Of a DNA stretch of 58,890 bases, positions 43,654 through 45,001 are shown piece by piece. Each line of letters opens with the position of its first letter. Within the stretch, counting starts at the first letter, position 1. Source of the DNA: a virus (lineage: Duplodnaviria; Heunggongvirae; Uroviricota; Caudoviricetes); IMG/VR virus record IMGVR_UViG_2526164617_000008; one strand, given 5' to 3'. Below the pieces are notes generated by a model. The model made no database searches, was not told the origin of the DNA, and saw only the letters and a program-made list of their open reading frames with translations. The position numbers and the translations under genes were made by a program.

Positions 43654-43898
43654 AACCCCACCTCGCAGACAAAGCGGGTGTAAATTGAGGGAATACTACG
43701 AAACGTAACAGACTCGGAGTCAGTGAATAACTCAGGTATTGGGTTATCAGCTAATATCGAGACTCAAAAAATGGAAAAACCCGCTCGACGGCGGGTTTAA
43801 GCTGTGTGACGAAGTAACCACTCTTAACAGCATAACCAATTTTGGTGATGCTGCCAACTTACTGATTTAGTGTATGATGGTGTTTTTGAGGTGCTCCA

Positions 43899-44174
43899 GT
43901 GGCTTCTGTTTCTATCAGCTGTCCCTCCTGTTCAGCTACTGACGGGGTGGTGCGTAACGGCAAAAGCACTGCCGGACATCAGCGCTATCTCTGCTCTCAC
44001 TGCCGTAAAACATGGCAACTGCAGTTCACTTACACCGCTTCTCAACCCGGTACGCACCAGAAAATCATTGATATGGCCATGAATGGCGTTGGATGCCGGG
44101 CAACTGCACGCATTATGGGCGTTGGCCTCAACACGATTTTACGTCACTTAAAAAACTCAGGCCGCAGTCGGTAA
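43899..44174 (+). CDS. insA: IS1 InsA
   Basis: Identical to other copies. Confidence 0.85.
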
Positions 44175-44596
44175 CCTCGCGCATACAGCCGGGCAGTGAC
44201 GTCATCGTCTGCGCGGAAATGGACGAACAGTGGGGCTATGTCGGGGCTAAATCGCGCCAGCGCTGGCTGTTTTACGCGTATGACAGTCTCCGGAAGACGG
44301 TTGTTGCGCACGTATTCGGTGAACGCACTATGGCGACGCTGGGGCGTCTTATGAGCCTGCTGTCACCCTTTGACGTGGTGATATGGATGACGGATGGCTG
44401 GCCGCTGTATGAATCCCGCCTGAAGGGAAAGCTGCACGTAATCAGCAAGCGATATACGCAGCGAATTGAGCGGCATAACCTGAATCTGAGGCAGCACTTG
44501 GCACGGCTGGGACGGAAGTCGCTGTCGTTCTCAAAATCGGTGGAGCTGCATGACAAAGTCATCGGGCATTATCTGAACATAAAACACTATCAATAA
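44093..44596 (+). CDS. insB: IS1 InsB
   Basis: 167-aa frame. Confidence 0.85.
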
Positions 44597-45001
44597 GTTG
44601 GAGTCATTACCCCAATTTTTTACGTACGTAAACCACTAAATGATATTTGCGAGAATGCTACCGAGTATTGAAAACACCACTACAAATACATAAGCAAATC
44701 CCAACAAATAACCAACAAATAATTTCCAGTGTTATTTTTAGCTGGTTTAAATTGAACCTTCAAATTATAGAGCACTTATAAATAACAGCCGTTAATATAA
44801 ATTGGCTAATAGATTTATTTTTATTCAGCCAAGAGCCATGAATAGGATTCGATAGAAAAAAGTTCAGATAAAAATAGAGATCTACTTCACAAATCAAACG
44901 AGAAACCAAAACTTACATCTTGAAATAATCACATTGATTAGATGAATATTTATCGCGCAGTGACATCATTTTTTAATAATAGTTCAAAAAAAGGGCTCAC
45001 G

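Follow-up and report, generated by a model that had tools for sequence, protein, structure and literature searches.

Antiterminators of the Q21/Q933W type make up a single protein family, PF06530 (bioRxiv 10.1101/651190). The Q21 QBE lies between the -35 and the -10 and has two TGAGCA subsites; antitermination requires the C:G pair at -21 as well as that at -13 (PMC6606751). Where these proteins find their promoter depends on the phage. The late promoter pR' directly follows Q in lambda, 933W and H-19B, and in the GenBank record of 933W Q is immediately followed by a putative pR' (TTTACGATCGTAAAAATCTGCATATCAT; TTTACG-16 bp-TATCAT) as well as a putative qut and a terminator. In Stx phages this block shares sequence with the 3' end of Q; one record, SC370, has it annotated as a promoter with a terminator. 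A different arrangement is found in the DLP12 (qsr') prophage of E. coli K-12 and B, which has quuD, a porin gene on the opposite strand, essD, rrrD and rzpD. The DLP12 region is commonly hit by insertion sequences: the porin gene of E. coli B has an IS1 inside it, and nmpC of K-12 carries an IS5. The outward -35 of IS1 forms hybrid promoters when it is correctly spaced from a -10 (PMC8764528), as happens upstream of afaA in E. coli ST131, where this -35, located in the inverted repeat, is combined with a resident -10 (PMC8764528).

How does the present locus compare with these systems? The window, by which we mean the whole 58,890-nt stretch of caudoviricete DNA analysed here (IMG/VR record IMGVR_UViG_2526164617_000008, equal to the complete contig AKND01000037.1 of assembly GCA_000268005.1), has the gene order of DLP12. 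On the minus strand it carries a Q antiterminator gene of the QuuD type (Q21/Q933W family; 46273-46656, 127 aa) that looks intact. A porin moron (nmpC/lc/ompC-like; 45002-46084, plus strand, 360 aa, PF00267) is divergent from the late genes. These are again on the minus strand and start with a P21-type holin (essD/S21 type; 43438-43653, 71 aa, PF04971), with the endolysin R, a lysozyme (42941-43438, 165 aa, PF00959), and the Rz spanin (42486-42956, PF03245) beyond it. Pfam bears out these gene assignments: P21-type holin, lysozyme, Rz, porin and a PF06530 Q. The match of Q to PF06530 covers the full profile (E = 3.5e-53). The protein is 100% identical to Q of phage PhiR34_1, 81% to that of H-19B and 78% to that of 933W; its match to the Q21 structures in the PDB (E = 7.6e-7) spans the N-terminal two thirds only. 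The order of Q, opposite-strand porin, holin, endolysin and Rz is also annotated in E. coli prophages, the porin homologues in the matching loci being annotated as OmpC, and the Q-porin-holin layout is seen in PhiR34_1, a plaque-forming phage. Unlike DLP12, the prophage in the window still has lambda-like head and tail genes; this stretch (22218-39069) is 96-98% identical to the head and tail genes in E. coli AL.H8.

Between the porin/Q region and the holin gene S, on the leftward late side where the initial annotation had put it, lies a complete IS1 (43844-44611, plus strand, 768 bp) whose transposase genes are directed to the porin, away from the lysis genes. Its length, its inverted repeats, insA and insB with their slippery motif, the DDE domain and the target duplication all identify it as a member of the IS1 family, and it is 99.5% identical to annotated E. 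coli copies of the IS1A family. The insA gene (43899-44174, plus strand, 91 aa, GTG start) encodes the InsA zinc ribbon and InsA HTH domains (PF03811 and PF12759), and the insB frame (44093-44596, plus strand) encodes the DDE transposase domain (PF03400, DDE_Tnp_IS1). The A6C motif for the -1 frameshift, AAAAAAC (44150-44156), is intact within the insB frame, and the terminal inverted repeats are identical at 18 of 23 positions by manual count. A perfect CCAATTTT stands on both flanks of the element, at 43836-43843 on the left and at 44612-44619 on the right, and the insertion junction reads ACAGCATAACCAATTTT/GGTGATGCTGCC. The ninth flanking base differs (A against the terminal C of IS1), so the duplication is 8 bp and not 9; a match of this length would arise by chance with a probability of about 1.5e-5. 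The duplication had already been recognised, with an extent of 43836-44618 for element and repeats together, of which the start is right and the end falls one base short of the last base of the right repeat. The window holds five copies of IS1, and the flanks were compared for the three that are full-length and colinear, leaving aside two indel-bearing or interrupted ones (6895-7662 and 49321). Among these three, only the copy at 43844-44611 has a target duplication, which is absent at 13874-14641 and 55765-56532.

What did the site look like before IS1 arrived? With IS1 removed and a single CCAATTTT kept, the empty site was rebuilt and aligned to 5426 complete E. coli genomes. It aligns as one unbroken piece in 2339 of them, with a best identity of 99.7%, and in one uninterrupted E. 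coli locus (L002) both window flanks overlap by exactly 8 bp (positions 20493-20500 of that locus). IS1 has arrived by simple transposition into a known site; this had been proposed at the outset, and the comparison with relatives that lack the insertion bears it out. The occupied site is another matter. Across the 5426 complete E. coli genomes the exact IS1 junction never occurs as one piece, and there are no exact matches to it in GTDB representative genomes or metagenome contigs. Three apparent full-coverage matches in E. coli were rejected, each being made of two separate pieces 500-740 bp apart. The 50 records with a coverage of at least 80% were likewise rejected as the same junction; they are composites in which IS1 stands at another site nearby, such as within the porin gene of E. 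coli B or in Q of strain MB22.

Where does late transcription start? The initial annotation had assumed a late promoter adjoining Q, from which a Q-dependent transcript would have to cross the 768 bp of IS1. On that reading the Q-modified transcript runs antisense through the porin and is terminated in IS1, which would be polar on the lysis and morphogenesis genes. It has the arrangement of lambda, 933W and H-19B in its favour, and IS1 is indeed located between Q and S. Nevertheless, a late promoter immediately following Q was rejected: the promoter scan found no promoter-like site on the late strand of the 189-bp gap between Q and the porin, where only the terminator hairpins of the porin are located. 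A fragment resembling the upstream half of pR' does occur there, just after the Q stop codon (GTTTACTAAAAAT; 46250-46262, minus strand), as a single match where 0.01 would be expected by chance, for a search pattern that was picked after the sequence had been seen. This fragment, GTTTAC...TAAAAAT, is without a -10 at usable spacing. Possibly it is what survives of the upstream half of pR', marking the entry point of the porin moron.

A complete homologue of pR' and of the terminator tR' is found at the IS1 site instead. The H-19B sequence just 3' of Q aligns to the late strand of the window from 43843, which adjoins IS1, down to 43775, and a further 17 nt align beyond IS1, at 44633-44617. In a three-way alignment the empty site, TTTACG TACGTAAAAAATTGGT TATGCT GTTAAGAGTGGTTAC ... 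AAACCCGCCGTCGAGCGGGTTTTT, falls column for column on the features of 933W and H-19B. The native -35, TTTACG (44627-44632, minus strand), aligns with the annotated pR' -35 of 933W and has ended up across IS1, towards the porin; a 10-bp palindrome, TACGTACGTA (44621-44630), overlaps it. The native -10, TATGCT (43829-43834, minus strand), aligns with the TATCAT of 933W and H-19B and is on the holin side. From spacing only, the start is predicted at about 43822 on the minus strand. It falls within a conserved initial transcribed region, GTTAAGAGTGGTTAC (43814-43828, minus strand), which is the expected site of a sigma-dependent pause element and is nearly invariant among the window, the DLP12-type loci, 933W, H-19B and SfIV. 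The TACATT of 933W corresponds to TACTTC in the start region of the window, with the final T missing, and a -10-like hexamer could not be clearly assigned there. Further on comes the intrinsic terminator tR' (43777-43798, in its wider extent 43766-43798, minus strand), which has an 8-bp stem, a 6-nt loop and a T-run according to the terminator scan and RNA folding. It lies about 115 nt upstream of the holin start and aligns with the terminator annotated in 933W. Folding of the short leader gives the terminator hairpin, with an overall z-score (-1.55) that is unremarkable.

Written out, pR' of the empty site is TTTACG TACGTAA[AAAATTGG]T TATGCT, with 8 of 12 matches to the sigma-70 consensus and an A-rich spacer of 16 bp. 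The inner bracketed octamer is the IS1 target, AAAATTGG being the late strand of the left duplication copy at promoter positions of about -21 to -14. By the three-way alignment IS1 entered within this spacer, at about -21/-22; IS1 favours AT-rich targets, and the spacer of pR' is rich in A. The likeness to the 933W and H-19B module extends to the -35 TTTACG, the 16-bp spacer with CGTAAAAA, the start region TAAGAGTGGTTAC and the terminator, all of which align. The modules also differ. The promoter of 933W and H-19B overlaps the 3' end of Q, whereas the porin moron of the window puts about 1.6 kb between the two; and their pR', with a TATCAT -10, is unsplit by IS1, whereas that of the window is split and has TATGCT.

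The pR'-tR' block is no peculiarity of this prophage. It is identical in DLP12 of K-12 and B and does not vary among four uninterrupted loci of the DLP12 type, which include a plaque-forming phage, and it is present in 363 phage records, against 401 that encode a PF06530-type Q. Phage phiP27 was tried as a further comparison and proved uninformative, the block being absent just downstream of its Q. Of the parts of a Q21/Q933W-type cassette, the window has a PF06530 Q, a pR' homologous to that of 933W and H-19B (in the rebuilt empty site), and tR' and the lysis genes downstream.

Because of its homology to the annotated pR' and terminator of 933W and to H-19B, the native pR' is placed by sequence comparison at the point of IS1 insertion, and IS1 splits its -35 from its -10 and does not sit in its transcript. 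With the promoter at the insertion point, no late transcript must cross IS1. The porin moron separates Q from pR', and Q must act in trans on a holin-adjacent promoter. A promoter beside Q is therefore very improbable. Q-modified polymerase resists terminators. It is processive once Q is loaded and ignores terminators over long distances (bioRxiv 10.1101/651190), so polarity would be a poor fit even for a transcript that did cross the element. The initial annotation had itself named 43654-43843 as the interval in which a late promoter would speak against polarity. The -10, the predicted start and tR' are indeed inside it, at 43777-43834, and the -35 (44627-44632) is the one part beyond IS1. 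Its expectation that the insertion harms late expression survives in so far as Q-dependent expression is likely impaired; polarity as the mechanism does not, since IS1 splits the promoter.

A second promoter has to be considered at this point. Could the lysis cassette be driven mainly by a sigma-E-type promoter, 'essDp', starting near 44953 on the late strand beside the porin start, some 530 nt upstream of the holin gene and also upstream of IS1? IS1 would then be located at about +335 of a long untranslated leader and would block expression by polarity, besides any effects on pR'. This promoter is reported to depend on both RpoE and Q. In PMC7918800 a regulatory fragment of K-12 DLP12 is numbered from -121 to +650, after Rueggeberg et al. 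2015, and the forward primer given there maps to 45055-45074 of the window, which puts the +1 near 44953 (a start reconstructed from the primer). The reverse primer from the same text was not located in the window, allowing up to 4 mismatches, or in the E. coli B locus, allowing up to 1. At the right distance upstream of about 44953 there is GAACT-16 nt-TCACT, read by eye, which is a weak sigma-E-like match to set against a reconstructed start. A promoter at this position would not explain why the pR'-tR' block co-occurs with a PF06530-type Q in 363 phages. We give essDp a minor role because its transcript would still meet tR' before the holin gene. That it is the main driver of the cassette seems quite unlikely; a contribution from it may coexist with pR', and if it does contribute, its transcript would have to cross IS1.

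What, then, has become of the split pR'? The insertion has left the native -35, with the seven upstream spacer bases, on the porin side at a distance of 776 bp; on the holin side the -10 is still joined to the start region, tR' and the lysis genes. Should the site for Q be contained wholly within -21 to +1, the target duplication would keep it intact and Q could still act. In place of the lost -35 the left inverted repeat of IS1 offers an outward -35-like TTGGCA (43852-43857, minus strand), a candidate for an IS1::pR' hybrid promoter. In the promoter scan of the window TTGGCA-17 bp-TATGCT scores 9 of 12 consensus matches. TTGGCA itself agrees with the -35 consensus at 5 of 6 positions, against 4 of 6 for the native TTTACG. 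The same scan did not find the TTGGCA-17-TATGCT hybrid in the uninterrupted locus L002, where the native promoter was not listed either. It is plausible, judging from these motifs, that the left end of IS1 and the native -10 form a hybrid promoter. The likeness to IS1 at afaA (PMC8764528) is in the outward -35 of the inverted repeat and the resident -10. In the window that -10 comes from an existing promoter, so that the predicted hybrid would amount to a swap of the -35 and not to the activation of a silent gene, and without the action of Q the transcript would end at a terminator 25-55 nt downstream. The hybrid promoter would probably still start a short transcript of about 50 nt that ends at tR'.

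Can Q still be loaded there? IS1 transposed into the pR' spacer at about -21/-22, cutting CGTAAAAA, a motif that the alignment finds in common between the DLP12 and 933W types and that becomes CCAAAA after the insertion. If the QBE resembles that of Q21, its upstream subsite would not survive an insertion at -21/-22. The QuuD/Q933W-type QBE is placed in the spacer by extrapolation from Q21, as the PDB match to Q21 spans only the N-terminal two thirds of the protein; Q21-style direct repeats were looked for in the pR' spacer by eye, and none was convincing.

Phage SfIV offers a useful contrast. Its Q is only 52% identical, and it has the same start region and terminator upstream of the holin with an unrelated -35 and spacer. 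This contrast fits a Q-specific element upstream of the -10. SfIV had also been considered for another purpose, being a plaque-forming phage with an IS1 between Q and the lysis genes, but it was rejected as evidence for transcription across IS1: in its layout Q is followed by a moron containing the IS1 and then by the start region and terminator just upstream of the holin, so that the pR'-tR' block is downstream of IS1 and adjoins the holin.

Since CGTAAAAA is truncated, and the spacer is where Q proteins of the Q21/Q933W family are expected to bind, Q has probably lost its place to load; polymerase would then stop at tR' and the late genes would stay off, leaving the lysis and morphogenesis genes uncoupled from Q. 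The same anatomy can be read differently, with a hybrid promoter that remains fully responsive to Q through a site in the retained stretch from -21 to +20, in which case the insertion would be silent or would even strengthen the late promoter. The 8-bp duplication does keep the native sequence from -21 downstream, TTGGCA is nearer to consensus than TTTACG and has an optimal spacing of 17 bp, and the 933W record puts its putative qut downstream of the start. Against this, the QBEs of both Q21 and lambda are between the -35 and the -10, and the upstream Q21 subsite, at about -25 to -20, is essential (PMC6606751); the conserved spacer motif is cut; and SfIV, with its divergent Q, differs precisely upstream of the -10. 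A fully Q-responsive hybrid is rather unlikely on this balance. On these grounds, responsiveness to Q is probably lost, a somewhat better bet than its being kept.

The state of the prophage as a whole bears on what such a loss would mean. An IS2 (39785-41098) separates the terminase genes from the lysis cassette, a break near 27079-27151 divides the tape-measure gene into two frames, and the early region ends at 49321 in another IS1, itself interrupted by an element of the IS21 family. Beyond it come sucrose-type sugar genes. The window is a decayed DLP12-like lambdoid prophage that is already defective, and its Q is without a normal induction route because the immunity/replication region is absent. 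Given the other lesions and the missing early region, this copy most likely came in as a passenger during IS1 expansion and would have had little additional fitness effect. We consider it probable, with good confidence, that IS1 split pR' and damaged both the promoter and the Q-loading site, without polarity across the element, and that it did so as a passenger.

A more purposeful role for IS1 can be imagined. The element may have rewired the locus, so that pR', once gated by Q, became constitutive and blind to Q, with tR' as its only restraint. The lysis cassette would then be permanently disarmed, possibly under selection in a lineage that is Shigella-like and rich in IS elements. According to PMC7918800, the DLP12 locus was reported as lost in work from 2017; expression of a DLP12-type lysis cassette is reported to be disadvantageous in a Shigella-like lineage. 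The window shares with the setting described there the type of lysis cassette and an IS-rich, E. coli/Shigella-like genome, and uncoupling the cassette from its activator would fit the trend, a link that is speculative. Selected rewiring of this kind is a long shot.

The passenger insertion that we favour combines two events of known kinds, the disruption of a prophage control region by an insertion sequence and the formation of a candidate IS1-type hybrid promoter. It shows how much the reading of an insertion depends on promoter architecture, against which IS elements here have to be judged: in DLP12-type prophages the Q-dependent late promoter adjoins the holin gene and not Q, because a porin moron has been inserted between Q and the promoter. 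In a single step the insertion takes away the native -35, brings in another with ideal spacing and probably severs the site bound by Q, which makes the junction a compact natural test of the promoter bases that QuuD/Q933W antiterminators need. It also documents a further route by which IS expansion disables prophage lysis functions, with a consequence for the host that is probably small because the prophage was already defective.

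The native -35 element of the late promoter pR' is overlapped by a perfect 10-bp palindrome, TACGTACGTA, at 44621-44630 on the late strand of the window. Is this symmetry accidental? At the corresponding position the Stx phages 933W and H-19B (comparison loci L006, 3425-3434, and L004) carry TACGATCGTA, in which the central TA has become AT and the palindrome is still perfect. Its retention through this change hints at a site to which a dimeric factor binds.

A second trace of the promoter may lie directly after the stop codon of Q, the antiterminator gene, where GTTTACTAAAAAT (46250-46262, - strand) is similar to the pR' upstream half (GTTTAC[GTACG]TAAAAAAT). 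This pattern was picked post hoc from the sequence, with a chance expectation of 0.01 matches, and it may be a scar left by entry of the porin moron inside the ancestral promoter. Where does the promoter described for DLP12 fall? According to the primer positions in PMC7918800, whose numbering follows another paper, the start of essDp would map to ~44953 (region 44953-44986, - strand). This position, on the strand opposite to the porin gene, is just ~50 nt away from that gene's start codon and is not that of the conserved pR' homolog. As far as this literature-derived position goes, the published promoter numbering and the comparative evidence disagree.

Downstream, the late operon holds a second insertion sequence, located truly within the transcript path. 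This is a complete IS2 (39785-41098) with TnpA and TnpB on the - strand and imperfect inverted repeats of 33 nt, flanked by the lysis cassette with a KilA-N gene on one side and by the terminase genes on the other. The tail tape-measure gene (25607-28167) occupies two reading frames and is probably a pseudogene: residues 1-339 and 370-859 of the homolog in E. coli AL.H8 are matched in separate frames, and the middle segment near 27079-27151 is shorter and divergent. The 373-aa tape-measure fragment also occurs in two further public assemblies.

The right-hand boundary of the prophage is IS1 copy 4 (49321-52197), itself split by an IS21-family element (49552-51654) encoding IstA (389 aa) and IstB (253 aa). 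Past this boundary come a gene for an oligosaccharide/sucrose-type MFS permease (52329-53576), a further IS1, an IS3-family transposase and a truncated fructokinase. The window contains no early region of the prophage (N, cI, O, P). The left end of the contig (1-5456) is 100% identical to a section of a different prophage in some E. coli genomes, where the annotated genes include those for Mom, Com, a recombinase and DUF826 proteins. This makes the contig a patchwork of prophage remnants whose joints are IS1 copies without target duplications.

How does the same module fare in other loci? In DLP12 of E. coli BLR(DE3)/B (L003, around 5490-5510), GAGCTGG replaces GAGCGGG in the stem of the terminator tR', a substitution that makes the hairpin weaker. 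SfIV (L013, segments 2180-2950 and 4500-4564), an inducible, plaque-forming Shigella phage, has an IS1 within the moron that separates Q from the pR'-tR' block. Although the SfIV Q shows just 52% identity and neither the -35 nor the spacer of this phage is related, the start region and the terminator are nearly the same as in the window. In E. coli MB22, otherwise the closest E. coli relative, the homologous prophage region carries different IS elements, with an IS3 within Rz and Q truncated by an IS1 (L001, 4174-5336 and 8196-9116). This comparison shows that IS damage to the module is recurrent and independent.
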